Source: Candidatus Zhuqueibacterota bacterium
Lineage (GTDB): Bacteria; Zhuqueibacterota; Zhuqueibacteria; Residuimicrobiales; Oceaniaggregativiventaceae
Reading direction: 5' to 3'
Length of the DNA: 64,000 nucleotides
Assembly (NCBI GenBank): GCA_016929055.1
Contig: JAFGJN010000041.1
Span: 10,731-74,730 of the forward strand
This document shows, one piece after another, positions 2,296-22,978 of the stretch (positions within the stretch are counted from its first letter, which is position 1; every line of letters starts with the position of its first letter). The position numbers and the translations under genes were made by a program. Below the pieces are notes generated by a model. The model saw nothing but the letters and a program-made list of their open reading frames with translations. It was not told the origin of the DNA and did no database searches.

Positions 2296-5200
2296 GTGAA
2301 AAAACTGTTGTACCTCTCTTTCATCCTGCTTTTCTGCCTCGTTTCTCTCAGCCTTGCCAGTATTAGCGGCAAAATTACCGGACACATCATCGATGCGGAA
2401 AGCCGGGAACCCCTGACAGGCGTGAATGTATTGGTGGAAGGGACAACATTGGGAGCCGCATCCGATCTGGACGGCTATTTCGTCATCCTGAATGTTCCGC
2501 CCGGGAGCTATACCGTCAAGGCGCTGATGATCGGCTACTCGTCCGTCAGCACCCAAAACGTACGGGTCATCATCGATCTGACGACAACGGTCGACTTTAG
2601 CTTGACGCCTGAAGTATTGGGAGTTGGCGATGTCGTTGTTGTGGCCGAGCGCCCGGTTGTGGCGCGCGACGTTTCCGCCAGTGAGATGAATGTCGAAGCC
2701 AAACTGATCGAAAGTTTACCTGTTGCCGAGATCACGCAGGTTGTCGGTTTGCAGGCAGGTGTGCAGGGATTGAGCGTTCGTGGCGGCGGCTCGGACCAAA
2801 CCGCCTTTATAATCGACGGTTTTTCCTTTAACGACGAGCGCTCCAACATCCCCTATACCGCCGTGAGCCTCAGTTCGGTCAAGGAAGTCAAGATTCAGAC
2901 CGGCGGATTCAACGCTGAATACGGCAATGTGCGCTCCGGCGTGGTCAATGTTACCATGCGCGAAGGTGATAAAAATCGCTACAGCGGCACGATCACCGGC
3001 TGGTATCGCCCTCCTGCTGAAAAACACTTTGGACCTTCCGTCTACGATCCCAATACCTTTTTTACCCGTCCCTTTCAGGATCCCGAGGTGTGCTGGACGG
3101 GAACGGACAATGGGGTCTGGGACGAGTATACCCAAAAACAATATGTGCGCTTTGCCGGTTACAATGCGGTTTCCGAAGCGCTGTTGTCCGATGAAGATCC
3201 CGCCAACGATCTGAGTCCAGAGGGTGTTAAACGCTTGTGGGAGTGGCAGCACCGCCGCCGTGGAGAGATCGAAAAGCCCGATTATACCCTGGATCTCGGT
3301 TTTGGCGGCCCCATGCCTTTTGTCAGCGATCGATTGGGAGGCTTGCGCTTTTTCGCTTCTTATCGCGACGTCGAAGAATTTTTTATTTTTCCGCTTTCGC
3401 GGGACAGTTATCGAGACCGCCATGGTCAGGTCAAGTTGACTTCCGACATCAACTCGGCCATGAAACTCATGGTTACAGCGCTTTACGGGGAAACCTTTTC
3501 TGTCTGTCCCGAAGATTATTCACCGCCTACCGGCACGATTTTTCGCAATTCCTACACCATCGCGCGCAAAGTCCGAAGCAACAGCAACGCTGCCAGCATT
3601 CTCTATGTACCCGGTTATTACAATCCCACCGACATCTATCGCACCCATTTGGGTGCCAAGTTTAGCCATGTTTTGAACTCTAATACGTTTTACGAGATCA
3701 ATCTGCAGCACATGATCAGCCGCTATCGAACCTGGCGCACGGACGAACGCGATCGCACGCCCCGTTATGAAATCGTTGATGATTATTTTGTCGATGAAGC
3801 GCCCTATGGCTATTATGGCTTTCCTGATGTCGCCGTCGACGGTATGCGAATGGGCGGTTGGATGGGCTTGAGCCGTGACCGAAGCAATTTCTACACAACC
3901 TCGCTGCAGGCCGACCTGACCAGCCAGATCGGCAAATTCAATCAGGTTCAAACCGGGCTTCAGTTCGTCATGAACGATCAGGATATTCATTCATCGCTGG
4001 TGAGCCCGTTTTCGCTATCCTGGAATGAATCGCGCGATTGGAACATCTCACCTTTTCGGTTGGGCGCCTATGTGCAAGACAAGATTGAATTCCAGGGTTT
4101 TGTCGCCAACATCGGTCTCCGTCTGGACCTCTACAATCCCAACACCGAGTGGTACGAATTCACGCCCTATGACAATTGGTTGAATTCCAGTCAAGGCCGT
4201 TCAATCGAAACTGAAGCGCCGCGCAAAGAATCCGAACTCAACGCCAAGCTCAGCCCGAGACTGGGAATTTCCCATCCCATAACCGAAAACTCGAAACTCT
4301 ATTTCAATTATGGCCATTTTCATTCGCTTCCGGACAACCGGTATCTCTATACCATCGACCGATTGGGCGACGGGCAAGTGCAGTTTCTCGGCAACCCATC
4401 GCTGGCTTACAGCCGCACGGTTCAATATGAATTGGGTTATTCGCACAACATCCTCGATCTCTTTCTGCTCAACATTGCGGCCTATTATAAAGATGTGACA
4501 GATCAGCCGAATTGGATCCACTATATCAGTGCGGATATGACAGTGGACTATTATCTGGCGGACAACAACAGCTATGAAGATATCCGTGGTTTTGAGTTCA
4601 CCCTGACCAAAAGAATGGGTGAGTGGGTGACCGGATTCATCAATTACACCTATATGATGCGCACCTATGGCTATTTCGGTTTGCAAAGATATTACGAAAA
4701 CACCAATTTGCAGCGCAATTATGAGAGACTTAATCCGTACCAGGAAAAACCGCATGCCTCTCCCTACCTTCGGGCCAACATCGATCTGCGCACACCGATG
4801 CAATTTGGTCCCACCTGGCTTGGCTTGAAACCCCTGGGTCAGTGGAGCCTGAATATCCTCGGTACCTGGCAATCAGGGGATTATTTCACCTACAATCCCG
4901 GTGGCAAACGCGGGGTCAAAGACAATGTCCAGTGGGTAGATTACACCAATCTCGATTTGAGACTTTCCAAGACGTTCAAAATGCAAAAAATCGATCTGCA
5001 ATTGTTCGTCGATATAACCAATACCCTGAACACCAAACGCTTGTCGACAGCGGGTTTTTCGGATGAAAACGACTGGATTGCCTATATGGAATCGTTGCGC
5101 TTTGATTGGGAAGAAGGCGCTGAGCGCGGCACTGATCATGTTGGCGATGTGCGCGATGCGGGCGTTCCCTATCAGACGTACGATCCGACCGACCCGTCTT

Positions 5201-5322
5201 TGAGCGAAGCGGATCTGCAGCGCATTCTCGATACCAAAGCTTACATCGACATGCCCAATCTCAGCTATTTTTCTTTTCTCAATCCGCGAGATATTCAGAT
5301 CGGCGTCAAGATCGATTTCTAA
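2296..5322 (+). CDS. TonB-dependent outer-membrane receptor with N-terminal carboxypeptidase-regulatory-like domain (SusC-like architecture)
   Basis: GTG start 8 nt after GGAGGT. There is a signal peptide, then GKITGHIIDAESREPLTGVNVLVEGTTLGAASDLDGYFVILNVPPGSYTV (CarbopepD_reg-like), then a plug segment VRGGGSDQTAFIIDGF. A long beta-rich C-terminal region ends in the terminal aromatic ...GVKIDF. It is a paralog of 19808-22978. Confidence 0.8.
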   Translation: MKKLLYLSFILLFCLVSLSLASISGKITGHIIDAESREPLTGVNVLVEGTTLGAASDLDGYFVILNVPPGSYTVKALMIGYSSVSTQNVRVIIDLTTTVDFSLTPEVLGVGDVVVVAERPVVARDVSASEMNVEAKLIESLPVAEITQVVGLQAGVQGLSVRGGGSDQTAFIIDGFSFNDERSNIPYTAVSLSSVKEVKIQTGGFNAEYGNVRSGVVNVTMREGDKNRYSGTITGWYRPPAEKHFGPSVYDPNTFFTRPFQDPEVCWTGTDNGVWDEYTQKQYVRFAGYNAVSEALLSDEDPANDLSPEGVKRLWEWQHRRRGEIEKPDYTLDLGFGGPMPFVSDRLGGLRFFASYRDVEEFFIFPLSRDSYRDRHGQVKLTSDINSAMKLMVTALYGETFSVCPEDYSPPTGTIFRNSYTIARKVRSNSNAASILYVPGYYNPTDIYRTHLGAKFSHVLNSNTFYEINLQHMISRYRTWRTDERDRTPRYEIVDDYFVDEAPYGYYGFPDVAVDGMRMGGWMGLSRDRSNFYTTSLQADLTSQIGKFNQVQTGLQFVMNDQDIHSSLVSPFSLSWNESRDWNISPFRLGAYVQDKIEFQGFVANIGLRLDLYNPNTEWYEFTPYDNWLNSSQGRSIETEAPRKESELNAKLSPRLGISHPITENSKLYFNYGHFHSLPDNRYLYTIDRLGDGQVQFLGNPSLAYSRTVQYELGYSHNILDLFLLNIAAYYKDVTDQPNWIHYISADMTVDYYLADNNSYEDIRGFEFTLTKRMGEWVTGFINYTYMMRTYGYFGLQRYYENTNLQRNYERLNPYQEKPHASPYLRANIDLRTPMQFGPTWLGLKPLGQWSLNILGTWQSGDYFTYNPGGKRGVKDNVQWVDYTNLDLRLSKTFKMQKIDLQLFVDITNTLNTKRLSTAGFSDENDWIAYMESLRFDWEEGAERGTDHVGDVRDAGVPYQTYDPTDPSLSEADLQRILDTKAYIDMPNLSYFSFLNPRDIQIGVKIDF

Positions 5323-5375
5323 GTCAGGCGTGCTCGGCACACTGTAATGCTGACTCTATCATAGGAAACCCGACT

Positions 5376-7460
5376 ATGCGAACCACTCAAAAAATAATCA
5401 TCAATCTGTTTTGCGCACTTTATCTGATCGCGCCCGTCATGCTCCGGCAGACGGCCGATGCGCAGATCTCGCCTAAAAAAGAGAAATGGGTCAAAGTCGG
5501 ACGGTTGCATCATCTGCTGCGCGCCTCGACATTGGAACGCGGATACAACGGCACCTATTATGCCGGATTGATGTGGCCGGCGGAATATGCCGAAACCGAC
5601 AACTTTGTCAACAAGCGTTTCTGGGTGTCGTGCCGGGATTTTACCGATATCGACAACAAATACTGGCCGGTCAAGGCCACAGCTCTCGGCGAGACCGAAG
5701 ATCTGACCCAATTCTGGACCGATGAATTCAGGCAGGTGGCGCAATTCGAGCCGACGCGGGTTTATGTCGATGGCGTTGAAATCTCGGAAACAACCGAAAC
5801 CTATGCGGACATGATCAACGAAATTGACCCAACCCTTGCGGCCGATCGCATGGTCTTTAGTCGAGTGCACACCAATATTGGTCTGACCATCGAGCGGCGG
5901 GTCTATGTCTTTAGCCAGCAATACCATGACAACTATTTCATCTACGATTATGTATTCAAAAACACCGGCAATATCGATGGTGATGAAGAGATCGAATATC
6001 CGACCAACACGCTGCAAGACGTCTATATCGGCATGATGGTGCATTACGCCACAAGTCGCGATGGAGCCTGGAAGGTGCAGGGACGCCAAACCTGGGGCTA
6101 CAATCAGTGGTTGACCAAGCGCGGCGAAGATTATGAGGATTTTGTCAACGGAGATACGAGTGCCGACTCGCTTCGATGCACCTTTAGCTGGCTTGGACAG
6201 GACGACAAGGTCAGCCATGACAATATCGGCGCTCCGGATGTTCAGGGAGGTACCGGGCGCTGGTGTTCGCCACAATATGCCGGAATCGTTTTTTTACACA
6301 CCGACAAGAGTCCAAACGATCCCAGCGACGATCCCAATCAGCCCCTGACTGTGGGCTGGAACGGCAACGACACTTTTCCCCGATTGAGCGGCACCAACGA
6401 ACTGGAGATGCAAAACGCCTATAAAATGTGTCAAGGTTTGATGATGAAAGGGGCCACCGATCGTATGGATGACCGAATGAAAGACACCAAATATCCCGGT
6501 CGTCTGACAGATGACGGCGGTGCTGCAGCCGTGATGGGATGGGGTCCCTACACCCTCGCGCCCAGCGACAGTTTTCGATTCGTCTATGCCGAAGGAGTTA
6601 ACGGATTAAATCGACAGGCCTGCATCGATTTTGGCCGAAGCTGGATCAACGAGGATAGCCCGTATGAATTACCGGACGGTACTGTGACCAACGATGCGGA
6701 CGAGTTTAAAAATACATGGATCTATACCGGGGCGGATTCCATTCTGCAGACATTTGGTCGCGCCAACCGCAATTACAAGTCGGGCTATGCGATCCCCCGG
6801 CCGCCACGTCCGCCATCTGTATTCAATGTGACCTCCGGTGGCGACCGCATCATGCTGGAATGGACGGCGGAATCGGAAGATTCTCCCGATTTTGCCGGTT
6901 ATCGCATTTTTCGAGCGGTCGGAAAACCAGATACGACTTACCAGGAGATCTTTAGCTGCGGTGCTGGAACGGACAATCCCGCAATCGTCCACAGCTACGA
7001 TGACATAGATGCGGTGCGCGGATATTCGTATTACTATTACATCACCGCTTTCAACGACGGAAGCCGCAACAATACAGATCTCAATCCACACGGATCTCTT
7101 TCCAGCAGCCGCTTCTACACTCAGACAAGCGAACCTGCCTACCTGCGCCGACAGGCGGCAGAAAATCTCAACGATATTCGCGTGGTTCCCAATCCTTACA
7201 ACATTCGAGCCCGCGATTTGCAGTACCCGGGTGAGGAGAACAAGATTATGTTTCTCAACATCCCCGGCCAGTGTACGATTCGTATCTTTACCGATCGCGG
7301 CGATTTGATCAAAACCATCAACCACACCAATGGAACCGGTGACGAAGCCTGGAATCTGGTTACCGAATCGCGTCAGTTCGTTGTCAGCGGTGTCTATATC
7401 GCCTATTTTGAAACTCCGGACGGCACCAGCACATTTCGCAAATTCGGCGTTATCCGATAG
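5376..7460 (+). CDS. Secreted multidomain protein: unrecognised N-terminal domain, PRPPRPP linker, FN3-like domain and T9SS C-terminal sorting domain
   Basis: Signal peptide MRTTQKIIINLFCALYLIAPVMLRQTADA, then an internal YHDNYFIYDYVFKNTG motif and the linker IPRPPRPPSVFNV. The segment GYRIFRAV...YSYYYYITAFNDG is FN3-like. The terminal about 95 aa (RVVPNPYN...IRIFTDRGDLIKTI...SGVYIAYFE...) match the T9SS type-A CTD pattern. It is a paralog of 17658-19766. Confidence 0.6.
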   Translation: MRTTQKIIINLFCALYLIAPVMLRQTADAQISPKKEKWVKVGRLHHLLRASTLERGYNGTYYAGLMWPAEYAETDNFVNKRFWVSCRDFTDIDNKYWPVKATALGETEDLTQFWTDEFRQVAQFEPTRVYVDGVEISETTETYADMINEIDPTLAADRMVFSRVHTNIGLTIERRVYVFSQQYHDNYFIYDYVFKNTGNIDGDEEIEYPTNTLQDVYIGMMVHYATSRDGAWKVQGRQTWGYNQWLTKRGEDYEDFVNGDTSADSLRCTFSWLGQDDKVSHDNIGAPDVQGGTGRWCSPQYAGIVFLHTDKSPNDPSDDPNQPLTVGWNGNDTFPRLSGTNELEMQNAYKMCQGLMMKGATDRMDDRMKDTKYPGRLTDDGGAAAVMGWGPYTLAPSDSFRFVYAEGVNGLNRQACIDFGRSWINEDSPYELPDGTVTNDADEFKNTWIYTGADSILQTFGRANRNYKSGYAIPRPPRPPSVFNVTSGGDRIMLEWTAESEDSPDFAGYRIFRAVGKPDTTYQEIFSCGAGTDNPAIVHSYDDIDAVRGYSYYYYITAFNDGSRNNTDLNPHGSLSSSRFYTQTSEPAYLRRQAAENLNDIRVVPNPYNIRARDLQYPGEENKIMFLNIPGQCTIRIFTDRGDLIKTINHTNGTGDEAWNLVTESRQFVVSGVYIAYFETPDGTSTFRKFGVIR

Positions 7461-7540
7461 AAATGAAAGGCTCGGCTTACGCCGACAGTCGATCGCTTAC
7501 AAAAAATTGCGGTACTGAATCATAAATTTTGGGTAAGCCA

Positions 7541-8566
7541 ATGAAAAAACAATTGATGACTTGCATGATCAGCCTGCTGCTTCTGCCGTCATTCTGCGGA
7601 ATTTTGGCAGCCGATAAAAAACTGGCGCAGACGGGTTTCCAGTTTCTCAGCATTCCGCCCCATGCCCGCTCGGCTGCCATGGGCGAAGCGTTCACCACCA
7701 TCGATGGCCGTTCCAGTTCGCTTTTTTACAATCCGGCCAATATGGCGCGGATGGATTGCTTTATGGATTTTTCCTTTACCAAACAGAATTGGATTGCGGA
7801 TATCAACCTGATTTCGGCCAGTTTCGCCGTCAATCCAGCGCGTGGTGCATACGGCACCCTGGGATTTAGCCTGATGACAGTCGATTATGGAGAGATCCAG
7901 GGAACCCGAGTCGATGCCGGCAGCGATGCCGGATACATCGACACCGAAACCTATTCCCCCGGCGCCTTTGTCGTGGGAACCGGATACGGCATTGCCTTGA
8001 CCGATCGGTTTTCAGTGGGTGGGCAAATCAAATACGCCTATCAATCCATCGGCAGCAATACCATCCCCATTCTCGATAAAAACGACCAGATGGTCGACAC
8101 TGAAACAAAAGACAACGAGCTGGGTGTTGTGGCCTATGATTTTGGCACTCTCTACCAGACCGGTTTTCGCAGCATCGCCTTCGGCATGTCGGTCAGCAAT
8201 TTTTCGCCCGAGGTCAAATATGAAAACGAGAGTTTTCAACTGCCGATGACATTTCGCATCGGCATTTCCATGGACGTGCTCGATTTTCTTCGGGTTGACG
8301 ACTCGATCCATTCTCTGCTTGTTTCGATCGATGCCTTACACCCCCGTGCCTACTCTGAACGGCTGAATTTCGGAATCGAATATCTCTTTATGGATCTTTT
8401 TGCCTTGCGCGGCGGCTATTTGTACAACTATGACGAACGAGGACTCACAGCCGGACTCGGTGTTCAAAAGAACTTAAACAATCGCTTGATCGCTTTCGAC
8501 TATGCCTATACGCCGTTCGGAATTTTCGACAACGTTCAACAGCTGTCATTTCGAGTTTCGCTTTAA
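7541..8566 (+). CDS. PorV/FadL-like outer-membrane beta-barrel protein (T9SS shuttle-like)
   Basis: Signal peptide, then AQTGFQFLSIPPHARSAAMGEAFTTIDGRSSSLFYNPANMA, matching the GF.FL...AR..AMGgAf...dD.sa.fyNPAg N-terminal signature of PorV/FadL-family barrels. Near the C-terminus are alternating beta-strand patterns with ERGLTAGLGV...FDYAY, ending in an aromatic-rich strand. An in-frame TTG at 7529 is possible, but the ATG at 7541 is preferred. It is a paralog of 16587-17618. Confidence 0.55.
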   Translation: MKKQLMTCMISLLLLPSFCGILAADKKLAQTGFQFLSIPPHARSAAMGEAFTTIDGRSSSLFYNPANMARMDCFMDFSFTKQNWIADINLISASFAVNPARGAYGTLGFSLMTVDYGEIQGTRVDAGSDAGYIDTETYSPGAFVVGTGYGIALTDRFSVGGQIKYAYQSIGSNTIPILDKNDQMVDTETKDNELGVVAYDFGTLYQTGFRSIAFGMSVSNFSPEVKYENESFQLPMTFRIGISMDVLDFLRVDDSIHSLLVSIDALHPRAYSERLNFGIEYLFMDLFALRGGYLYNYDERGLTAGLGVQKNLNNRLIAFDYAYTPFGIFDNVQQLSFRVSL

Positions 8567-8620
8567 GCCGGGCAATATGCCTCGCGGCTGCATTTGAATG
8601 AACTGCAAAAGGAGCGCAAG

Positions 8621-9823
8621 ATGAAACGAGGACTCGCGATTGTATTGGTCCTGTGTGGTATTTGGGGGTGTTCAAAAGATCGCCCCAAAAGCCTTTTCGA
8701 TCCGGATTATGTTTCACAGGAAAAGCCGACGATTCATTCTGTAACCCCGAGCGGCGAAGCCCTGGCTGCGGTGGTTCCCATCACCATCGAGGGTGCTCAT
8801 TTCCTCAACGACACGGCCAAAGTCTCGGTCTGGTTCAACACGGTCAAAGCCAAAATACTGCAGGCTTCCAGCGACCGGATCGTGGTTCAGAGTCCCAATT
8901 TGGTGGCCGATTCTGTTGCGATCAAAATTGCGGTCCGCGAAGCCGATCGCTTAAGCGATCCGTACTCCTATCGCTTGTTGCAATCGGTTTTTGTGGTCGG
9001 CGGTTTCAACAAATACGACGATCCGTACGCTTTGACATGCGATCGCCATGGCACCGTCTACGTATCCAACGCCCCTTCGCGGCTGGAAAAAGTGACACCG
9101 GAAGGCGAACGCACCCAATTCGGCAGCAGTATCGGCTCAGGTATTCGAATGACAAGTGTGAAAAATATGAAAGTTGGACCTGGCGATTATCTCTACCTGG
9201 TCAGCAACACCAATTATATCGCTCGTATTTCAGTCGACGGCGGCGATATCACAAAATGGGCCACCCTATCGGCTTCGGTCTATGATCTGGATTTTCTCCC
9301 AAGTGGATCACTCTATACAGGGGGACGCAATGCGCCGCTTATTTTGGTTAAAAACGATGCCTCATCCTCCAATGTAGCCGACTATAAAGGATACAATATA
9401 CAGGCGATACGTGTTTTTGACGGCTATGTCTATATCGCCGCTGAAATAACCGCAGATCGAACGGTGCATATCTGGAGACACCGGATCAATGCCGATGAAA
9501 GCGTCGGGGAACGCGAATTGGTCTTTAACTGGACTGAAAATTTCGGCACAGCTTCTCTCCTGGGTCTGACCTTTGCCGCCGATGGAACAATGTACATCGG
9601 CACTGATCTGATGGAATCGATCATGGTTTTACATTCGGACGGGAACTTTGAGCCCCTTTATCCCGGTGTTCTGCTGCCGGAAACCTATTCACTGTGTTGG
9701 GGACCGGATGAGTTTCTCTATATCGCCAGGCGAAATGACAGCAAAAATTCGAGTCAGGAACTGCAAACAGTGCTTAAGATCAATATGGTTAAATTGGGCG
9801 CCCCATATTACGGCCGACAATAA
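8621..9823 (+). CDS. Probable lipoprotein with IPT/TIG domain followed by a beta-propeller (NHL/SMP-30-like) domain
   Basis: ATG at 8621 lies 7 nt after AAAGGAG. The signal sequence has a Cys near the cleavage region (LVLCGIWGCSKD). PTIHSVTPSGEALAAVVPITIEGAHF is IPT/TIG-like, and repeated YVS/YIG/YLY beta-propeller blade patterns follow. Confidence 0.5.
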   Translation: MKRGLAIVLVLCGIWGCSKDRPKSLFDPDYVSQEKPTIHSVTPSGEALAAVVPITIEGAHFLNDTAKVSVWFNTVKAKILQASSDRIVVQSPNLVADSVAIKIAVREADRLSDPYSYRLLQSVFVVGGFNKYDDPYALTCDRHGTVYVSNAPSRLEKVTPEGERTQFGSSIGSGIRMTSVKNMKVGPGDYLYLVSNTNYIARISVDGGDITKWATLSASVYDLDFLPSGSLYTGGRNAPLILVKNDASSSNVADYKGYNIQAIRVFDGYVYIAAEITADRTVHIWRHRINADESVGERELVFNWTENFGTASLLGLTFAADGTMYIGTDLMESIMVLHSDGNFEPLYPGVLLPETYSLCWGPDEFLYIARRNDSKNSSQELQTVLKINMVKLGAPYYGRQ

Positions 9824-9930: not shown

Positions 9931-9960
9931 CTTGCCGGAAGTCCAAAGGCTTCCGGCAAG
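9931..9960. other. Strong GC-rich hairpin in the 5' leader of the glutamate/aspartate-type symporter gene
   Basis: CTTGCCGGAAG-TCCAAAGG-CTTCCGGCAAG: a perfect 11-bp stem with an 8-nt loop and no flanking U-run on either strand. It ends 44 nt upstream of the ATG at 10004. Confidence 0.4.
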
Positions 9961-10003
9961 TGGAATCAATAACGATCACGTGCATGTGAAAAAGGACTGT
10001 ACC

Positions 10004-11344: not shown

Positions 11345-11358
11345 GAGTATGGACAGTC

Positions 11359-11724: not shown

Positions 11725-11748
11725 GGCAGGACATCGATAAAGTCAGGG

Positions 11749-16532: not shown

Positions 16533-16569
16533 AAAAAAATGGATGGCCTGTTCAAGGCCATCCATTTAT
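16533..16569. terminator. Rho-independent terminator shared by convergent genes (strongest on minus strand)
   Basis: AAAAAAA-ATGGATGGCCT-GTTCA-AGGCCATCCAT-TTAT: a perfect 11-bp stem. Read on the minus strand, the hairpin is followed by TTTTTTT, 18 nt after the 16587 gene stop. It sits about 120 nt past the sppA stop on the plus strand. Confidence 0.7.
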
Positions 16570-16586
16570 CTGGAATAAACAAATCG

Positions 16587-17618
16587 TCAGAAGGCCAGGC
16601 CGAAACTAAAAACGTGCACGCCGTTGAACAGGCCATAGTCCTGATAGGCGTAATCAAAACCGACCAACTGTCCCTGAAACGTTTTCCTCACCCCCACTCC
16701 GGCAGTCAAACCGCGTTCGTCGAAATTTCCCATATATCCCATGCGCACGGTCAAAAGCTCGAGATAGGTGTATTGACAACCAAACTGAATTTTTTCTTTA
16801 AAATCACGCGGATGCCGGGTTTCAAAGCCCAGAAGGAGCCGGTGCTCTTGCCCCAGAGGGTGAAAAAATGAAAAAGGATCGACGGTCAGGCTGAAAGAAA
16901 CGGCAAACGGAAGAGGAAATTTTTCATCCTCATAACGAATTTCGCGGCTAATATTTTGTATCGCCGCTCCGAAACGAAGACCATGGGCAAGGAAATCATA
17001 GACCGTACCTACATCGATCGCTGGTTCCCCCAGGGCATAATTTTTCTCCTCCATACGCAATTCGGGATCATCGACATCGCTGCCTGAAGTGGCGATCCAT
17101 GCCGAACCGAGATCCTGGTGAGCGTATTTAACCCGAATACCGTAAGAGAATCGATCGCTGACTTTTTGACTAAAAGTCAGACCGAGCGCATAGGCCTGGG
17201 GAGTAAATGTGCCCGTCTCTTCAAAACCGACTTCATTGTTGGCTCTTCGCGTTCCATAAAACTCACCATAATCCATCATCAGCAAGTCTGCGGCGATCAC
17301 ACCGAGCTTTCCGACCTTGGCAGCGAGAGCGGCAGAGTTTGTCTGAATATCTGCTATCCCGTTGGTGTGGTTGAGACGGAGGTCGAAGCGGGACTCGATC
17401 CAGCTCACGCCAGCCGGGTTCCAGAAAACGGCATTGGCATTTTGCAACAAAGAGACACCCATGCCGCCTCGACCAATCGCTTCGGCAGAAATTGGATTTT
17501 CCAAAAATCGAAACCCCACCTGACCTTTTTTAACAATATCGCCCTGGAGCGGCGCTGTGAACAAAGCACAAAACGCCAAAATTAAAAACGATAGACGCAT
17601 TTGACGATTTATCGGCAT
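16587..17618 (-). CDS. PorV/FadL-like outer-membrane beta-barrel protein (paralog of 7541-8566)
   Basis: Signal peptide, then GQVGFRFLENPISAEAIGRGGMGVSLLQNANAVFWNPAGVS, and C-terminal ...ERGLTAGVGV...FDYAY...FSFGLAF. The domain order and motifs are collinear with the protein at 7541-8566. Confidence 0.55.
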   Translation of the reverse strand: MPINRQMRLSFLILAFCALFTAPLQGDIVKKGQVGFRFLENPISAEAIGRGGMGVSLLQNANAVFWNPAGVSWIESRFDLRLNHTNGIADIQTNSAALAAKVGKLGVIAADLLMMDYGEFYGTRRANNEVGFEETGTFTPQAYALGLTFSQKVSDRFSYGIRVKYAHQDLGSAWIATSGSDVDDPELRMEEKNYALGEPAIDVGTVYDFLAHGLRFGAAIQNISREIRYEDEKFPLPFAVSFSLTVDPFSFFHPLGQEHRLLLGFETRHPRDFKEKIQFGCQYTYLELLTVRMGYMGNFDERGLTAGVGVRKTFQGQLVGFDYAYQDYGLFNGVHVFSFGLAF

Positions 17619-17657
17619 GGTTTTCTCCTCATGCTAAGCGAATGCGGGTCCGCGGAC

Positions 17658-19766
17658 TCAACGCACGACGACAAATTTTACAAATTGATCAGAAAGCGCG
17701 TTGCCGGCCTGATCCACAGCCTCCGAGACAGCAAGAATATAGATGCCGCTAACAATGTATTGGTTGGAATCGGTGCGTTGATCCCAGACTTCCTGGTCGG
17801 TACCAAAATGATCGATCGATGCGATTCGGTCGCCAGTTTCGGTAAAAATTGTGAGCTTGCATTGATAGGGCAAGCGGGTGAACAGAATACGCGATCGGTC
17901 GCCGGGAAAACCGAGCGATCCGGCATTGATGGTTGCCGGATTGGGCACGACACGAACCCGATCGGTTTCATCCAGGCCGGCTTTGAAAGAAATTGCGGGC
18001 AATCCGCTTTTATTGACATAACGCGAGCTTTCAAGAGGCTGGCCGGGAATCAAACCGTCGGTGTTCTGCGAGCCATCGTCTATAGCGGTGACGGCATAAT
18101 AGTAACTTACACCTGGAACGACGTTTTGGTCGATGTATTCCATCTGCTGCCGATCCTGGGTTTCAAAAACTCGTTGCCAGCGGTCACCCGAAGACTGGTC
18201 TTCCGGATCGTTGACAAATGCCGCGCCTTTTTTGCGATAGACGCGCCATAATGCCCAATCATCGACTCCCGTGTCGGGATCTTTATAATAGGTTTCGGAC
18301 GGATAGGACCAGCGAACGCGAATCTGGTCCGCATCGCTGATAATTTCGACGTCCGGTGGCGGAGGCGGGTCGGGTATATTTAAGTCGCGATTAAAAGCCC
18401 AAAAGGCGCGATCCATGGTCTGAAAGAGCGAATCGCGGCCGGTCATGATTTGGGCGTTCTTTTCTGCGTCGCTGATGTCGCCGGCAAACCAGGCTTTGCC
18501 GACGCTGTCGGCTTTTTCCCAGGAGATGGAGCCGACGCCGACGGCATAAACGACAGTGATCGAGTCCTGTCGGTTGCTCTCCCAATCAAGCGTCAGATCG
18601 TAGGGTCCGACGGTGATAAACCGCATCGGACCTTTTTCCGGTGCAGCGGAAAAACCTTCGGTAACGGCATCGAGCGGAAACCGGCCACGAGAATCGAGTC
18701 CGAGATAGGTATCCCGCAGACCGAAATCGCGTCTCCCCCATAAATCTTTGACGATGGATGCATGGGGCATGGAATAAGGCTGGGCAGGATCATCTGCTGG
18801 ATTGACGTGGGATGTTGCGGCGTACAACAGCGAGAATCCGGGAATCTGCGGGGACAACAGGTGTCCTGTTGTTCGGTCCGGGTCTCCGGTATCGTCGATG
18901 CTGCCATTGGGATAGGGCGTGATGCCTTTAAATTTGTCGTCCCAGTAATAAGCGATCTTTAATGTATCGCGTGCAGCAGATGTCACGAGATGTGACGGAC
19001 GGCCGAACCAACTGTCCAGGTCATCCTCGCCTTCATAGGTAAAAGAACCGAAAACGGCGTATTCACCAGACTTGGTTGGTCCCAGGCTGAAGGAAATCGG
19101 CCACCACAACCGAATGGTTTGCGATGGGAAAAAGTCTTCCAGACCGGGATTTTCGATCTCGCGTTTGGTTTCGCCTGTGAATTTGTAGGTCGCTTTCCAG
19201 ATGACATAGTTGTCGTGGTTGGGATTGCTGTAGGCATAGACCTCGATGCGGGTTCGAATACCCCAAAACGGCAGGATATCTTCCCAGCTGGCGATGATAT
19301 CCGCCGGAAGATTGGGATCAATTTGCCAGCGGTATTCGCGAAAGAGGGGTGTTCCGTCAACGGTTACATAAGGCGGACGATAGCGGCGCCGTTCCCAGGA
19401 ATAATCGTTGACCCCGTTGCTGACAAAGGGGGTGGGGATGATTTTCTTTTGACCCAGCTGGTCGATACAACCATTGTCATCCAGGCAAACCGGATTAAAG
19501 ATCTGATAGAGCATCTGCGAATGCCACTCATCCTGAGGATAGTAGAGCAATTCGGTTTTTTCCGCTCCGGAACCGGCCAGCATCCAGCTGTATTGGGTTG
19601 TAAACTGTCCCTCGCCATTCAATTTTTTCATATCCCATTTGATGGCATTGACATCGACAAAGAGAGGCGGTCCGTTCAAATCTTTTTGCGCAGAGACGGG
19701 CGCAACGGTAAAAAGATAAAATAGCGGCAGGCATATAACAAAAACACGGATAATATTTTTTGTCAT
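17658..19766 (-). CDS. Secreted multidomain protein with poly-Pro linker, FN3-like domain and T9SS C-terminal sorting domain (paralog of 5376-7460)
   Basis: Start at 19766 (MTKNIIRVFVICLPLFYLFTVAPVSAQKD signal peptide). It shares with the 5376 protein the YSNPNHDNYVIWKATYKF motif, an IPDPPPPPDV linker, the FN3-like WRVYRKKG...YYYAVTAIDDG and a terminal RVVPNP...LTIFTETGDRIASI...SGIYILAV CTD. Confidence 0.6.
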   Translation of the reverse strand: MTKNIIRVFVICLPLFYLFTVAPVSAQKDLNGPPLFVDVNAIKWDMKKLNGEGQFTTQYSWMLAGSGAEKTELLYYPQDEWHSQMLYQIFNPVCLDDNGCIDQLGQKKIIPTPFVSNGVNDYSWERRRYRPPYVTVDGTPLFREYRWQIDPNLPADIIASWEDILPFWGIRTRIEVYAYSNPNHDNYVIWKATYKFTGETKREIENPGLEDFFPSQTIRLWWPISFSLGPTKSGEYAVFGSFTYEGEDDLDSWFGRPSHLVTSAARDTLKIAYYWDDKFKGITPYPNGSIDDTGDPDRTTGHLLSPQIPGFSLLYAATSHVNPADDPAQPYSMPHASIVKDLWGRRDFGLRDTYLGLDSRGRFPLDAVTEGFSAAPEKGPMRFITVGPYDLTLDWESNRQDSITVVYAVGVGSISWEKADSVGKAWFAGDISDAEKNAQIMTGRDSLFQTMDRAFWAFNRDLNIPDPPPPPDVEIISDADQIRVRWSYPSETYYKDPDTGVDDWALWRVYRKKGAAFVNDPEDQSSGDRWQRVFETQDRQQMEYIDQNVVPGVSYYYAVTAIDDGSQNTDGLIPGQPLESSRYVNKSGLPAISFKAGLDETDRVRVVPNPATINAGSLGFPGDRSRILFTRLPYQCKLTIFTETGDRIASIDHFGTDQEVWDQRTDSNQYIVSGIYILAVSEAVDQAGNALSDQFVKFVVVR

Positions 19767-19807
19767 GGTAAACTCCCAATTCAATTTGCCGTGCAAGCCA
19801 AAGCTCG

Positions 19808-22800
19808 TCAGAAATTCAGGCGCAAACCGAGCAAAATTCTCTGCGGATTGAGAAAAAGCGGTGCGGTAAACCATCCCACATTGATATGCTCTTTATCCCA
19901 TTCGCCTAATTTGTCGTCGCCTTTTTCATCGCCACTTTCGAATGGAAAATGGAGTGAGTCGATATAGCGATCGTATTGAGCTGTGCTCATGTTGCGAAAA
20001 GAAAGCCGTTTCTGGTCGAGCAGGTTTTGTACGGTACCAATCAACTCCAGCTGCATCCCGGCCAGGTGGAACATTTTAGATACGCGTAAATCGAGATTGG
20101 AATAATCGACCACCTGAATTTTCTTTTGTTGATTTTCGGGTGCAAAGGGATTGATGATCTGTTCGCCGCCGTCGCGCCATTCAAAACAAAAGTTGGCATA
20201 CCAGGCGCTCAGAGGTCGCAAGCCGAGAACACGAATCCCCCAGTTGTCGGGTGTGTGCAGATTAACGTTCAAGTGTCCTCGCGGCAGCGGCTGAGTAATG
20301 GAGATATTGGGATTGCGCATCTCTTCCAGAGACAACAAGCGATTTTCATAGACGCGTGCCAGGCCCGAACGCCCGCTGCTCTGCAGCATATACTCGTAAT
20401 TGCTCCAAAAGGTGACAAATCGGCCAAAACTTTTTTCGAATCGCAATTCGATTCCGCGGATATCCTTGTAGGCGTCAGGAAAATATTGCTGGACGTAGAG
20501 CTCTTCCCAATAATCGACATAGGTTCGGCTGAGCGGTTCGCCTTTGATATCTTTGTAATAGATCGACAGATTGATGAGATAATCCTTGAAAAGGCTATGT
20601 TCATAGCCGAACTCGTAGGCGATTGTGCGAGCCATATCGAGCTGCGGCGATGGAACATTGGCCGCACCCGGCATGACGGCTTGATTGTAGGTAAAGTGAA
20701 TATTGGGACGCTGATAAAAATGGCCATAATTGAAATAGAGCTTGCTGTTGACCGTTACCGGGAAGGAAACACCCAATCGCGGCGACAGGCGGAATTGTAC
20801 CGGTTTTTCTTCACGCGGCCAACCCTCCGGTTCTTCCAATTGTTGGCGAAATTCTGCCCAGCGCTCCCAGGAACCAAATTCTCCGGGCAAGTATTGGTAA
20901 ACCAAATTGTAAAAATTCGCATAATCCAGGTCTAAAGGATGCTGAACCAGGTAGGAATATTTTTGCGGATTGAAATAATCGCCGCGAAGACCAAGGGTGG
21001 CGATCATTCCCTGAAATTCCAGTTTATCCTGAACATAGACGCCACCCTCAATCGGTTTGGCGGTAAAATATTGCCAGCTGTCAGGGGTCCAGCTTTTTTC
21101 AGATTGCAGCCAGCTGCCGGAATTGATTGACAGATAGTTGTATTTAAAGCTGAATCCCGCTTCGATCTGGTGATGTCGACCGGCCTGATAGGTTAGATCG
21201 GCGCGCAGATTCGAAACCCAGGAATAGGATGAATCGGCCGATTGCAGTCCACCATAAAGCCAAAACATGTTGTTGATGTCTGTCAACCAGTTTGTGGATG
21301 CATTGGGTGTACCCACAGTGGGAGCATTCAGGACACGAATCGAGTCGACAAAAGCCCAGGAGCTGCTGAGAGTGGTATCGGCGGCAAACGGAGTGAGTTC
21401 ATGATCATTATAACTGAATTGAAAATCGACCGTATAAAAACCCTTGGCCGAAAAAGCATGGGTGAATTTAAGCCCGCCAATAATATAACGTTGATCGTAG
21501 AATTGAAGCCTGCTTCTGTTGAACATCTGTTCAAACCCATTTGAGCCGCCTAAAAGACGGGCCTGTTGCTGGACAGATACTTCGGTGCTGCTGAGGAAAT
21601 TAAAACGGCTGGAATTGTCGATCAACGCGCCCCCATAAGTCGTCGGGGTTCCGGCGGTGATGGTGTTGACCTGCGCATAAAGCCCGTTGACAGCCAGCTT
21701 CATATCGGGATTGAGGCGAGTGGTCAATTTGAGCTGGGTGTTCCAGTCGACATAATTGTCGCGGGGGCCGAGTGGAAAGGCGTATTGGGTGTCTTCGTAT
21801 TTTCCGCCGAGCAGAAATGTGGTATTTTTTAAATACTCGCCGATGAGCGGTAATCGAGCGCCCGGCATCGGTCCCGTGAGGGTGGCCTCGATAAAGGCAT
21901 CGGGGTTGGTGCCGAACTCGTATTGTGGATGCTGCAGCTGCCACAATTTGCGTTTTTGTTCGGGTGTCAGCGTCACCCCGTCGGGGATACCGATAGCGCT
22001 GTAATTGCTGATACCTTCACGCCGATTGTTCCATCCACGGAAAAAACGAAACTCTTCAGGGACCTCTTCATTTCCTCGGGCACCGATATAGGCATAACCG
22101 GTTTCGGAGGTATCCGCAAAGACGCGATAAATCCACGACTCGTCGCTCCAGGGATTCTGGCCGTAAAATTTTCTCTGATTGGCGGGTGTGATGTCGAATT
22201 TCAGAGCCAGATTGTATCGTTCACGAGTTCCTTCCTTGGTCACCGCATTGACCAGACCCGAACGAAAACCGCCGAATTTGGCTTCAAAACCGCCTGTGAG
22301 CACCTGCAGTTCGGCCACCGAGGTCGAATTGAGCGAGAGATATGAATTTTCTGAACGCGGATCGCGAACCGAGATGCCATCAACGCGCACATCTGTTTCG
22401 CGGATAGCGCCGCCGCGGATACTCAATCCGTGTCCATCGTTGCCCGAAACAAGCTCGACACCTTTGAGTTTGCCGACAAATTCATCGATGCGCAGAACCG
22501 GCGCTGCTTCGACGCGTTCGGTTAAAATGATCTCCTGGGTGCCAGCGATATCTGGTTTGATAATTTCGCGTTCGGCAATGACCGCCACTTCATCCATGGC
22601 GATCGCTTGCATTTGCAGGGGAAAATCCACGGTGATGGTTCGGTCGATATTGACACGAACCTGCTTTTTGATCAGTGCGGTATAGCCCATGAAGGAGGCG
22701 CGAATATCAAACGCACCGGGCGGCACATTGAGGATGACAAAATAACCGTCTGTATCGGTGGCTGCGCCTTGCTTTTGCGATAATTCCACCGGTCGACCGG

Positions 22801-22978
22801 CTTGATAAATACTTTCGATCACCACATTGGCGCCAGGTAAGGATTCACCTGTCTCCTGGTCATAAACTCGTCCGGTCACTTTACCACCGGCAGCATCAAC
22901 CACCGAATTTACAAAGAACAGACAAAGCCCCACCAGCTTCCAGCAGCAAACCAGAGTTCGCCTGCTTGCCTCATTCAT
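19808..22978 (-). CDS. TonB-dependent outer-membrane receptor with N-terminal carboxypeptidase-regulatory-like domain (paralog of 2296-5322)
   Basis: 1056 aa. GKVTGRVYDQETGESLPGANVVIE...TDTDGYFVILNVPPGAFDI (CarbopepD_reg-like), plug region LSIRGGAIRETDVRVDGISV, and a barrel ending ...LGLRLNF. It is collinear with 2296-5322. Confidence 0.8.
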   Translation of the reverse strand: MNEASRRTLVCCWKLVGLCLFFVNSVVDAAGGKVTGRVYDQETGESLPGANVVIESIYQAGRPVELSQKQGAATDTDGYFVILNVPPGAFDIRASFMGYTALIKKQVRVNIDRTITVDFPLQMQAIAMDEVAVIAEREIIKPDIAGTQEIILTERVEAAPVLRIDEFVGKLKGVELVSGNDGHGLSIRGGAIRETDVRVDGISVRDPRSENSYLSLNSTSVAELQVLTGGFEAKFGGFRSGLVNAVTKEGTRERYNLALKFDITPANQRKFYGQNPWSDESWIYRVFADTSETGYAYIGARGNEEVPEEFRFFRGWNNRREGISNYSAIGIPDGVTLTPEQKRKLWQLQHPQYEFGTNPDAFIEATLTGPMPGARLPLIGEYLKNTTFLLGGKYEDTQYAFPLGPRDNYVDWNTQLKLTTRLNPDMKLAVNGLYAQVNTITAGTPTTYGGALIDNSSRFNFLSSTEVSVQQQARLLGGSNGFEQMFNRSRLQFYDQRYIIGGLKFTHAFSAKGFYTVDFQFSYNDHELTPFAADTTLSSSWAFVDSIRVLNAPTVGTPNASTNWLTDINNMFWLYGGLQSADSSYSWVSNLRADLTYQAGRHHQIEAGFSFKYNYLSINSGSWLQSEKSWTPDSWQYFTAKPIEGGVYVQDKLEFQGMIATLGLRGDYFNPQKYSYLVQHPLDLDYANFYNLVYQYLPGEFGSWERWAEFRQQLEEPEGWPREEKPVQFRLSPRLGVSFPVTVNSKLYFNYGHFYQRPNIHFTYNQAVMPGAANVPSPQLDMARTIAYEFGYEHSLFKDYLINLSIYYKDIKGEPLSRTYVDYWEELYVQQYFPDAYKDIRGIELRFEKSFGRFVTFWSNYEYMLQSSGRSGLARVYENRLLSLEEMRNPNISITQPLPRGHLNVNLHTPDNWGIRVLGLRPLSAWYANFCFEWRDGGEQIINPFAPENQQKKIQVVDYSNLDLRVSKMFHLAGMQLELIGTVQNLLDQKRLSFRNMSTAQYDRYIDSLHFPFESGDEKGDDKLGEWDKEHINVGWFTAPLFLNPQRILLGLRLNF

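Follow-up and report, generated by a model that had tools for sequence, protein, structure and literature searches.

What a TonB-dependent receptor, a secreted protein and a PorV-like barrel might accomplish together is the question raised by two cassettes in the DNA analysed here, a stretch of 64,000 nucleotides referred to as the window. Cassette 1 comprises the receptor gene TBDR1 (2296..5322, + strand, 1008 aa), the gene for a middle protein, MID1 (5376..7460, +, 694 aa; signal peptide, beta-supersandwich, proline linker, FN3 and C-terminal domain (CTD)), and BAR1 (7541..8566, +, 341 aa from the ATG, with the ORF opening at 7529), which encodes a 14-strand-type barrel of the PorV/PorQ family. 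Cassette 2 has the same order on the other strand, with TBDR2 (19808..22978, -, 1056 aa), MID2 (17658..19766, -, 702 aa from the second ATG of an ORF that runs to 19874; same architecture as MID1) and BAR2 (16587..17618, -, 343 aa; PorV/PorQ family). The cassettes are convergent, with 8.0 kb between the ends of the two barrel genes and intergenic gaps of 27-80 nt inside each unit. Coordinates, sizes and inverted order of all six ORFs agree with a previous sequence-only reading of this DNA. A promoter-like site, a consensus match only, lies upstream of TBDR2 (23072..23100, -; TTGACA-17-TATATT, 11/12 matches), and an intrinsic-terminator-like hairpin (16537..16567, -; stem of 13 bp, then a T run) lies 20 nt past the BAR2 stop codon; these two predicted elements bracket cassette 2 as a putative three-gene operon.

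The two cassettes are related gene by gene. BLASTP aligned TBDR1 with TBDR2 over the full length at 31% identity (E 1e-148), MID1 with MID2 at 30% (E 3e-52) and BAR1 with BAR2 at 35% (E 4e-72). The alignments are collinear and the similarity lies far beyond chance, in line with the three collinear paralogue pairs of well under 50% identity described before, and the motifs quoted for them (YHDNY[FV]I, IP[RD]PP[RP]PP, YYY[YA][IV]TA[FI][ND]DG, GF[QR]FL, NPA, ERGLTAG[LV]GV and FDYAY) were all recovered in the translations. The proposed old age of the duplication is borne out by the fact that each cassette is nearer to its own orthologues in other phyla (45-81% identity) than to its sister (~30%). 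Orthologues of TBDR1 in other phyla share 50-57% identity with it, and those of MID2, at 54-81%, occur in MAGs of KSB1, Marinimicrobia, Ignavibacteriales and Delongbacteria.

A survey of gene order covered KSB1, Calditrichota, Marinimicrobia/Fidelibacterota and Melioribacteraceae. At these loci, a receptor gene on the same strand immediately precedes the middle gene in 80/85 and 30/31 cases for the two subfamilies. In cassette-2-type loci, a receptor gene is located upstream of the MID2 orthologue in 7/7 cases and immediately precedes it in five of them, a T9SS-tagged enzyme being inserted in the other two; the barrel gene directly follows the MID2 orthologue in all seven. In cassette-1-type loci, the barrel gene directly follows the middle gene in 24/81 cases, one barrel is often found per two receptor-partner pairs, and 37 of the 43 loci longer than 18 kb encode one barrel or more. 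The triplet is thus syntenic across phyla. The earlier claim of one barrel per unit is true of the window and the cassette-2 family, but not of cassette-1-type loci, and a strict 1:1 tether is not general because the barrel gene is often non-adjacent in the latter and frequently single for two pairs. These loci have a conserved fourth gene, represented in the window by a lipoprotein gene (8621..9823, +, 400 aa from the ATG; lipobox LCGIWG|C) whose product combines IPT/TIG (PF01833 TIG, E 8.8e-11) with a beta-propeller-like C-terminal part; a TIG homologue was found in 36/43 loci longer than 18 kb.

Both middle proteins start with a signal peptide. In the AF2 model of MID1 (pLDDT 91.7, pTM 0.89), the N-terminal domain (aa 30-470; 5463..6785, +) adopts a galactose-mutarotase-like beta-supersandwich that terminates with a conserved long helix (aa 441-468). 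It is followed by the proline-rich linker IPRPPRPP (aa 471-481) and an FN3-like domain (aa 482-565; linker and domain at 6786..7070, +), the latter recognized by model strands at aa 482-560 and Foldseek matches to FN3. Pfam fn3 is matched by three members of the middle-protein family, and the NCBI record of MID1, from candidate division KSB1, gives the product as 'fibronectin'. The Foldseek TM score for the whole middle protein is low (0.22). Pfam and NCBIfam searches placed the N-terminal domain in no family, glycoside hydrolases and lyases included, and MID1 in no Pfam family. Likeness to the N-terminal beta-supersandwich domains of GH15, GH94, GH65 and GH116 enzymes and to aldose 1-epimerases is restricted to the fold, at 5-11% identity, without an (alpha/alpha)6 domain and without sequence-family membership. 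Because the fold matches, to N-domains of GH15, GH94 and GH65, are accessory domains in known enzymes, sugar binding by the MID head is plausible rather than demonstrated. Of the seven long relatives of the N-domain, six carry Por_Secre_tail or FlgD_ig at their C-terminus.

The C-terminal domain of MID1 (aa 600-694; 7173..7457, +) represents a divergent type-A CTD of the T9SS, and no other part of the family is as conserved. It aligns with canonical T9SS CTDs in hhalign (96.7%, E 4e-10), and a canonical Por_Secre_tail occupies its position in one family member, while the type-B signal CHU_C gave marginal or weak matches in 3/63 members. The best NCBIfam match of the region is the C-terminus of PorZ, to which it also shows structural similarity. 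The T9SS signal noted before therefore stands as homology to type-A CTDs, below the curated thresholds of TIGR04183 and PF18962. Between within-genome paralogues (41 pairs), the CTD retains 60% identity as compared to 36% for the N-domain, and its Neff is 2.4, against 5.1 for the canonical CTD profile of neighbouring cargo. By these sequence measures, its conservation exceeds what a transient export signal usually shows, and the tail probably behaves like a retained functional domain. T9SS core genes are absent from the window, so a T9SS in the host genome was assumed from other CTD-bearing genes and from the phylum-level distribution of the system (PMC11205867).

The barrels exceed the cut-off (90 bits) of the PorV/PorQ family model NF033709, with 203.9 bits for BAR1 and 166.9 bits for BAR2, and BAR1 stays below the equivalog thresholds for PorV (86.3 vs 250) and PorQ (80.3 vs 220). 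Searched against the PDB, the barrel profile retrieved PorV at E 7e-22 and TodX at 0.0035, and the BAR1 model (AF2, pLDDT 89) matched PorV best in Foldseek, with a TM score of 0.71 to 8gl6_F (from a CTD-bound complex) and 0.68 to 6h3i_F, as compared to about 0.5 for FadL. Profile and model thus identify PorV homologues, and an identity as ordinary FadL channels was rejected. Membership in PorP/SprF was likewise discarded: BAR1 weakly passes Pfam PorP_SprF (26.6 bits vs 22.3), but the NCBIfam model gives 27.5 bits against a cut-off of 90.55. PorU and PorZ keep their CTDs, which bind PorV and PorQ, respectively, and protection of CTDs from cleavage has been proposed as a role of cognate PorV-like barrels (PMC10202324). 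A further precedent is BamG, a FadL-like barrel on which a surface protein docks (PMC12578637). By analogy, the cassette barrel may tether the middle protein. The middle protein may also cap the receptor.

TBDR1 consists of a carboxypeptidase-regulatory-like N-terminal extension (aa 27-115; PF13715, 64.3 bits), a plug (aa 124-214; PF07715, 28.1 bits vs cut-off 23.9) and a large barrel ending in ...KIDF. TBDR2 gave 57.1 bits for CarbopepD_reg_2 and 26.7 bits for Plug, so that both receptors lie above the Pfam cut-offs and share these segments as previously noted. Both fail the SusC/RagA model TIGR04056 (55.6 bits vs cut-off 368; TBDR1 match confined to aa 26-165), and in the PDB the receptor family profile matched the TonB-linked receptor 9gbc, the CirA plug and the PhuR barrel but no SusC or RagA barrel. 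No ORF between 1 and 28 kb matched a SusD-type family in Pfam or NCBIfam profiles, as had been observed. The further suggestion that the secreted protein substitutes for SusD was not upheld: since SusD is not expected in the host, a member of KSB1, and the receptors fail the SusC/RagA model, it describes an analogy and not a replacement event.

Divergent from TBDR2 lies a gene for a ROK-family sugar kinase (23184..24188, +; PF00480, E 2.9e-50); glucokinases, GlcNAc kinases and ManNAc kinases are among the PDB relatives of its product. The kinase gene is followed by genes for an MFS sugar-type permease (24222..25427, +; MFS_1, E 3.3e-36; Sugar_tr, E 2.5e-12), a predicted inner-membrane importer, for a SIS_2/UPF0309 protein homologous to NagS (25870..26631, +; PF13580, E 1.7e-43; NF002805, 224.9 bits; 9eol (SCO4393), E 3.8e-18), and for the N-acetylglucosamine-6-phosphate deacetylase NagA (26628..27773, -; TIGR00221 equivalog, 287.5 bits vs cut-off 225.65). 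Streptomyces NagS (SCO4393) is a GlcNAc-6-phosphate dehydratase (PMC12680351). Cassette-2 orthologues are accompanied by the ROK-MFS-SIS block, divergently oriented in loci L086, L087 and L091, or by NagA, GH9, GH18 chitinase, PIG-L, GNAT or NamZ. Around cassette-1 orthologues, T9SS-tagged GHL10, whose Pfam family includes E. coli DigH, an enzyme that hydrolyses denuded peptidoglycan glycans, was found in 27/43 large loci, and NamZ exo-muramidase, SpoIID, Amidase_3 and a GH3/beta-lactamase fusion also occur nearby. In the window, cassette 1 is flanked by genes for an SDF symporter, a diacylglycerol kinase and a glycerate kinase, and none of the hydrolases seen at its relatives lies beside it. 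This context of amino-sugar catabolism and peptidoglycan or chitin hydrolysis had gone unremarked in the sequence-only reading.

We give a probability of roughly 0.5 to the reading of each cassette as a module for nutrient import at the outer membrane, belonging to the FCB superphylum beyond the classical Bacteroidota. Given the conservation of the three-gene unit in several little-studied phyla and its amino-sugar and cell-wall-degrading neighbours, its two old copies in the window probably represent an undescribed route for the capture and import of chitin or peptidoglycan fragments. In the proposed mechanism, a large TonB-dependent receptor that combines a SusC-like plug and N-terminal extension with a barrel of its own family would be co-expressed with the ~700-aa middle protein, whose variable beta-supersandwich would bind, or possibly trim, a glycan at the cell surface. 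The strongly conserved, probably uncleaved CTD would dock on the dedicated PorV-paralogue barrel, like PorZ on PorQ and PorU on PorV, and thereby keep the protein on the cell. The captured oligosaccharide, most likely a GlcNAc/MurNAc-containing glycan of chitin, chitosan or peptidoglycan, would then pass through the receptor, and in the case of cassette 2 the permease, ROK kinase, NagA and NagS-like enzyme encoded next door would provide the downstream route.

The middle protein could instead be a surface enzyme, with the mutarotase-like domain modifying glycans in a new way (as an epimerase, lyase, deacetylase-like enzyme or hydrolase) and so priming the substrate of the receptor, while the barrel still anchors or escorts the protein. 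This appears unlikely, as Pfam, NCBIfam and PDB sequence searches assigned the protein to no catalytic family, structurally it comes closest to the non-catalytic N-domains of (alpha/alpha)6 enzymes, whose catalytic domain is absent from the MID1 model, and its N-domain diverges rapidly between paralogues, as ligand-binding heads do. Still less probable is that the barrel acts as a cargo-specific PorV-type shuttle, or as a BamG-like biogenesis helper for receptor and partner, without tethering the middle protein, which would be attached otherwise or released. Shuttling is what PorV itself does (PMC10202324), the BAM complex of Bacteroidota contains the FadL-like barrel BamG (PMC12578637), to which the cassette barrels show weak matches (NF053685, E 8.7e-5; TM 0.47 to 9hjm_F), and the frequent 1:2 ratio of barrels to partners and the variable position of the barrel gene would suit such a role. 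However, the barrels are much nearer to PorV (TM 0.71) than to BamG, whose model gives 21.7 bits vs a cut-off of 250, and the extreme conservation of the CTD speaks against a mere export signal.

The substrate may also be a different one, such as peptides or metal chelates, or the unit may serve adhesion or a surface structure, the amino-sugar neighbours being coincidental. The amino-acid/dicarboxylate symporter after cassette 1, the lack of a glycan hydrolase near that cassette in the window, the weak receptor-barrel matches to haem and siderophore receptors and an S8 peptidase inserted in one relative point in this direction, but the amino-sugar, chitin and peptidoglycan genes named above are repeatedly found next to both types of cassette in independent phyla and the MID head has a fold associated with carbohydrate enzymes, which makes this the most doubtful of the alternatives.

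Under the preferred reading of a glycan-import module, the cassettes resemble SusC/SusD (RagA/RagB) in having a ~1000-aa TonB-dependent transporter with a carboxypeptidase-regulatory-like N-terminal extension and plug, encoded immediately upstream of, and almost always adjacent to, its surface partner, in loci that also contain genes for secreted hydrolases and cytoplasmic catabolism, with several diverged paralogous pairs per genome. They differ in that the resemblance of the receptor to SusC is confined to the N-terminus, that the partner is an all-beta supersandwich with FN3 and T9SS CTD, presumably delivered by the T9SS, whereas SusD is an alpha-helical TPR lipoprotein, that the locus includes a PorV-family barrel, and that the cassettes occur in KSB1, Calditrichota, Marinimicrobia and Ignavibacteria instead of Bacteroidota. 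In the BtuB-BtuG and XusA-XusB systems of Bacteroides, non-SusD surface proteins (e.g. beta-propellers) likewise capture the ligand and cap the TonB-dependent transporter encoded next to them, but these partners are lipoproteins without a T9SS signal or PorV-like barrel. The juxtaposition of a T9SS cargo gene and a gene for a dedicated outer-membrane barrel recalls type-B CTD cargo, whose gene adjoins that of an anchoring barrel, as in SprB-SprF and others (PMC9143113; PMC10202324), although the MID CTD aligns with type-A CTDs and the barrels belong to PorV/PorQ and not PorP/SprF. The proposed attachment resembles that of PorZ-PorQ and PorU-PorV in the T9SS attachment complex of Porphyromonas gingivalis, in which T9SS cargo with an uncleaved CTD is held by a cognate 14-strand PorV-family barrel (PMC10202324). 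The MID CTD has its best NCBIfam match in the PorZ C-terminus and may be retained in the same way, but MID lacks PorZ-like propellers, the barrels fall outside the PorV and PorQ equivalogs, and the pair is encoded in a TonB-dependent uptake operon rather than with secretion machinery.

The window contains two convergent three-gene cassettes. In cassette 1, a receptor gene (TBDR1, 2296-5322, + strand) is followed by the genes for a middle protein (MID1, 5376-7460, +) and a barrel (BAR1, 7541-8566, +), the fourth gene encoding a lipoprotein with TIG and propeller domains (8621-9823, +). Cassette 2 lies on the - strand and comprises the corresponding genes TBDR2 (22978-19808), MID2 (19766-17658) and BAR2 (17618-16587), flanked by a promoter-like site (11/12 consensus match) and a terminator with a 13-bp stem. 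All six open reading frames (ORFs) were recovered at the positions claimed in the sequence-only reading, the motifs quoted there were found in the translations, and the three paralogue pairs proved collinear, with identities of 31% for the receptors (E 1e-148), 30% for the middle proteins (E 3e-52) and 35% for the barrels (E 4e-72). An NCBI protein named 'fibronectin' from candidate division KSB1, the taxon of the window, matched MID1 with 100% identity. The 8 kb separating the cassettes contain unrelated housekeeping genes, encoding an SDF symporter, diacylglycerol kinase, glycerate kinase, a TPR protein and SppA. The symporter gene (9932-11344, +; GltP/SstT-like, amino-acid/dicarboxylate type) directly follows the cassette 1 lipoprotein gene; it may take part in importing amino acids from peptidoglycan or be a neighbour by chance.

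Several other features of the window were recorded. A 308-aa ORF at 28480-29406 (-) combines a NifU-like N-terminal Fe-S scaffold (aa 2-116) with a class I SAM methyltransferase (aa 149-269), an unusual fusion, and adjoins a ZnuABC-type metal transporter operon (29459-31992). The 449-aa product of 43090-44439 (-) has the odd architecture of an N-terminal OMP_b-brl barrel (aa 26-205), a coiled coil and C-terminal TPR/YfiO-like repeats. Downstream of the gene for a 597-aa radical-SAM protein (33984-35777), three ORFs in a row (392, 244 and 851 aa; 36153-40769, +) may form an uncharacterised surface or maturation cluster; the 392- and 851-aa products matched no Pfam or NCBIfam family, and the 244-aa product, scanned against NCBIfam alone, gave weak adhesin-like matches (Lsa33, LapA retention module). 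At 59546-62947 (+), an OtsA-OtsB fusion (GT20 plus trehalose phosphatase, 726 aa) precedes a TreT-type trehalose synthase (403 aa), placing two routes of trehalose synthesis side by side.

In both receptors the plug domain PF07715 exceeded its Pfam cut-off of 23.9 bits (28.1 and 26.7 bits for TBDR1 and TBDR2, respectively) and was preceded by the carboxypeptidase-regulatory-like N-terminal extension PF13715 (64.3 and 57.1 bits); both terminated in F. When TBDR1 was searched against the PDB with phmmer, its N-terminal extension alone was matched. A profile of 40 receptor-family sequences matched the N-terminal extension of a SusC homologue (9hfj) and gained the plugs of CirA, PqqU and YncD together with one barrel fragment, the SusC/RagA barrel still being absent from its PDB matches. 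Matches to the receptor barrel were partial only, namely to TIGR01786 (E 3.9e-7, aa 527-736) and to the PhuR barrel (E 1.4e-7, profile positions 594-782), and PF00593 or PF14905 was recorded on some orthologues. Judged by their sequences, TBDR1 and TBDR2 are TonB-dependent receptors that form a family of their own. Their length of ~1000 aa is shared with SusC. Against the SusC/RagA model TIGR04056, TBDR1 reached 55.6 bits vs a cut-off of 368.25, with aa 26-165 alone aligned, and TBDR2 gave no match; a standard SusCD polysaccharide utilisation locus (PUL) was rejected on this missed cut-off. No SusD/RagB-type Pfam match was obtained among the ORFs of 1-28 kb, and the gene downstream of the receptor was modelled as all-beta, in agreement with the earlier claim that SusD is missing beside the receptors. 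Because the receptors fall short of the SusC model and no SusD gene adjoins them, the unit is not a SusCD pair, nor does it correspond to a standard PUL variant.

The middle proteins belong to a family for which Pfam has no model. MID1 and MID2 gave nothing above threshold in Pfam or NCBIfam, and a Pfam search of 63 relatives yielded at most marginal matches to fn3, CHU_C and FlgD_ig. An AlphaFold model built from these 63 relatives (pLDDT 91.7, pTM 0.89) was all-beta except for short helices and one long helix. After the signal peptide came a beta-rich domain of ~440 residues with a long terminal helix (the head); a proline linker joined it to an FN3-like domain, and a beta-sandwich (the tail) formed the C-terminus. 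Signal peptides were visible in both MID1 and MID2. The head matched, by structure, solely the accessory N-domain of GH15, GH94, GH65 and GH116 enzymes. The (alpha/alpha)6 catalytic domain was absent from the model and no Pfam or NCBIfam family was assigned, so that the head falls outside known glycoside hydrolase, phosphorylase or lyase families; its sequence family is new and its fold known.

The sequence-only reading had assigned the tail to the C-terminal domains (CTDs) of type IX secretion system (T9SS) cargo. Curated models did not bear this out, with TIGR04183 giving 16.3 bits for MID1 (cut-off 23) and no match for MID2, and PF18962 (C-terminal sorting domain) being absent from the 63 family members searched, but homology to canonical CTDs did. 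A profile of 121 tails, compared by hhalign with a profile of 95 canonical Por_Secre_tail domains encoded by cargo genes nearby, gave a match (96.7% probability, E 4.2e-10) that ran end to end and included the last residue. PorZ was a structural match for the tail, and six of the seven long head-domain relatives terminated in Por_Secre_tail or FlgD_ig. A second group of relatives, whose best match is a gene of a Calditrichota MAG (L001:13390-15408, +), is a paralogue subfamily with the same tail type; a canonical Por_Secre_tail as its general ending was rejected, because 121/127 members carry the ...RKF[IV]IIR tail and 1-2 the canonical CTD. In the Calditrichota gene itself, Por_Secre_tail (PF18962, E 6.9e-11) replaces the ...RKF[IV]IIR tail, as in at most 1-2/127 relatives, and no receptor gene lies upstream. 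This natural tail swap argues that both tails are functionally equivalent for export. From the hhalign result, the PorZ match, the member with a canonical CTD and the CTD-ended long head relatives, we regard the middle protein as probable cargo of the T9SS, its tail being a specialised derivative of the type-A CTD. No T9SS core genes were found within the 64-kb window. A 584-aa protein encoded at 45849-47603 (-), with DUF6055 and a C-terminal FlgD_ig, looks like a further T9SS-type cargo and shows that the genome employs such sorting domains beyond both cassettes.

BAR1 and BAR2 scored 203.9 and 166.9 bits, respectively, against the PorV/PorQ family model NF033709 (cut-off 90), in line with the NCBI name 'PorV/PorQ family protein'. 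At the equivalog level, they reached neither PorV proper (NF033710, 86.3 and 72.2 bits vs 250) nor PorQ proper (NF033711, 80.3 and 87.6 bits vs 220), and neither reached the NCBIfam model for PorP/SprF. A profile of 52 such barrels retrieved Flavobacterium PorV at E 6.9e-22. The AF2 model of BAR1 (pLDDT 89) was closest in the PDB to PorV 8gl6_F (TM 0.71), which is PorV in the translocon complex with bound substrate CTD, and then to 6h3i_F (0.68). Ordinary FadL/TodX channels were ruled out by Pfam, profile and structure comparisons (PF03349, 20 bits for BAR2 vs 29.7 and no match for BAR1; TodX, E 0.0035; FadL, TM ~0.5), leaving the barrels PorV-like as originally described. BamG was likewise rejected (NF053685, 21.7 bits vs 250; BamG chains, TM 0.47-0.49 to the BAR1 model).

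Conservation was distributed unevenly along the middle protein. The mean top-residue frequency was 0.74 in the tail, the family maximum, vs 0.585 in the head. Mean identities in 41 within-genome paralogue pairs were 36% for the head, 49% for the FN3-like domain plus linker and 60% for the tail, and the corresponding values between MID1 and MID2 were 26%, 31% and 44%. Canonical CTDs encoded in the same loci gave a profile with an Neff of 5.1, vs 2.4 for the middle-protein tail. A variable head and a constrained tail would be expected if the head reads differing ligands and the tail keeps one partner, and the constraint on the tail exceeds what a disposable export signal usually shows.

To map the distribution of the unit, relatives of MID1 were searched in one genome per species and found in at least 568 species-representative genomes. 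Carriers were KSB1, Calditrichota, Marinimicrobia/Fidelibacterota, Melioribacteraceae and other Ignavibacteria, and also MAGs with looser labels; the head domain formed 426 clusters at 50% identity. Synteny was counted in 80 fetched loci, in which two middle-protein subfamilies are present. ORFs were called crudely (longest ORF, greedy), and in a few loci (L023, L053, L072) the middle gene was lost to an overlapping opposite-strand ORF, so that all counts are slight underestimates. A receptor gene lay directly upstream of the middle gene in 80/85 and 30/31 cases for the two subfamilies, by which chance adjacency was rejected; the receptor-middle pair is syntenic across phyla. Of the 43 loci longer than 18 kb, 37 contained one or more PorV-family barrels and 36 the TIG lipoprotein. 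The claim that each unit has its own barrel held for both cassettes of the window and for the loci with cassette 2 orthologues, where receptor, middle and barrel stood in this order in 7/7 (two with an inserted gene for a T9SS-tagged enzyme). It failed for cassette-1-type loci, where a barrel gene directly followed the middle gene in 24/81 cases only and one barrel often served two receptor-partner pairs by count.

Cassette 1 shared 50-57% (TBDR1), 45-50% (MID1) and 50-57% (BAR1) identity with its widespread-type orthologues. MID2 orthologues were 54-81% identical and occurred in KSB1, Marinimicrobia, Ignavibacteriales and others; by these values, cassette 2 is a separate lineage, conserved even better than the cassette 1 type. 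Each cassette is closer to its orthologues in other phyla than the two are to each other, and the duplication, already taken to be old, therefore predates the divergence of these phyla. The T9SS-tagged enzymes inserted between receptor and middle gene were a GH18 chitinase (L093:7739-8992) and an S8 peptidase (L089:5222-8953), which suggests that the operon recruits surface enzymes fitted to its own substrate. A ~190-aa protein without Pfam match (L061:4103-4681 and eight other loci; also L001:340-909 and relatives) is encoded after the middle gene of the first pair and before the barrel gene, so that the genes run receptor, middle, small, barrel, TIG. The window lacks this protein, which may be one more component of the unit.

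The genomic surroundings were examined for indications of the substrate. Divergent from TBDR2, the window encodes a ROK kinase, an MFS permease and a SIS_2 protein, after which comes NagA (above the equivalog cut-off). Streptomyces NagS (PDB 9eol, E 3.8e-18), a GlcNAc-6-phosphate dehydratase (PMC12680351), is a homologue of the SIS_2 protein. The ROK-MFS-SIS block is also divergent from cassette 2 orthologues in three other phylum-level lineages, and further neighbours of these orthologues included NagA, GH9, GH18, a PIG-L deacetylase, GNATs, NamZ and SpoIID. Cassette-1-type loci usually contained one or two genes for T9SS-tagged GHL10 proteins (27/43 large loci), a propeller cargo protein was common beside cassette 1 orthologues, and the exo-beta-N-acetylmuramidase NamZ (E 2.5e-73) was present in five loci; SpoIID, Amidase_3 and a GH3/beta-lactamase fusion were also seen. 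DigH of E. coli, whose hydrolytic substrates are denuded glycans of peptidoglycan (PMC12288456), belongs to GHL10 (453 bits) and has 24% identity to the GHL10 enzyme of a locus. Between the propeller cargo gene and GHL10, a ~312-aa PD40 (TolB-like) beta-propeller was observed in L040 (17802-18740) and eleven other cassette-1-type loci. The amino-sugar, chitin and peptidoglycan genes neighbouring both cassette types point to GlcNAc/MurNAc-containing glycans of peptidoglycan and/or chitin as the probable substrate.

From the homologies, folds, synteny, conservation and genomic context observed, we infer localisation, CTD retention, the contacts of tail with barrel and of partner with receptor, and substrate as follows. 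Receptor and partner (the middle protein) would be made together, and the partner would pass the outer membrane via the T9SS. Its tail would remain uncleaved and docked on the PorV paralogue. Among retained CTDs, that of PorU binds PorV and that of PorZ binds PorQ (PMC10202324), and the FadL-like barrel BamG serves as a platform for surface proteins (PMC12578637). The pattern of CTD conservation gives indirect support to such binding of the tail by the PorV-family barrel. The head would bind an oligosaccharide freed by secreted hydrolases and pass it to the receptor. The rest of the route would fall to NamZ- or NagZ-type enzymes in the periplasm and to the MFS permease, ROK kinase, NagA and NagS-like enzyme.

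Three points of this scheme have rivals. The head may be catalytic beyond mere binding, as epimerases share its fold and many of its polar residues are invariant; its divergence between paralogues would fit the reading of differing ligands. The barrel may act as a cargo-specific shuttle or biogenesis helper instead of a tether, a role favoured by the variable barrel-to-partner ratio; the strong constraint on the tail is what a lasting partner predicts. Cassette 1 of this genome may serve another substrate, given that the amino-sugar neighbours in the window belong to cassette 2 only and that the assignment for cassette 1 derives from the neighbours of its orthologues. On its most far-reaching interpretation, the unit would be an undescribed, phylum-spanning class of TonB-dependent import machine, whose capture subunit is a T9SS cargo held by an uncleaved, specialised CTD on a dedicated PorV paralogue. 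It would add a third role of PorV-type barrels to those in secretion and attachment, and would represent a SusD-independent mode of glycan capture and the main route of peptidoglycan/chitin-fragment scavenging in Marinimicrobia, KSB1, Calditrichota and Ignavibacteria. We regard this interpretation as tentative, with a probability of roughly 0.35.

No unit of receptor, CTD protein and PorV-like barrel is described in the literature searched, which left most subscription journals outside its coverage, or, as a three-gene unit, in the Caldithrix abyssi genome paper; its apparent novelty is argued from comparative evidence. Carriers of this large family include abundant lineages of sea and sediment that are uncultured, e.g. 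Marinimicrobia/SAR406, Calditrichota and KSB1. The recurrent neighbours of the family (DigH-family GHL10, NamZ, SpoIID, amidase, GH18 and NagA) suggest that chitin and peptidoglycan necromass, which represents a large, poorly assigned flux of carbon and nitrogen, is recycled by a route dedicated to it. The model also proposes a candidate function, open to testing, for the numerous orphan barrels that bear the annotation 'PorV/PorQ family' in carrier genomes and, if it holds, would link TonB-dependent glycan import with the T9SS, which have so far been treated separately. The anchoring logic resembles that of PorZ-PorQ, yet the cassette barrels are neither PorV nor PorQ proper. Compared with the SusCD pair, the unit would work similarly but differ in kind, and the Bacteroidota PUL design of a receptor with a surface partner would, if this is true, have an independent counterpart in SusD-less sister phyla.
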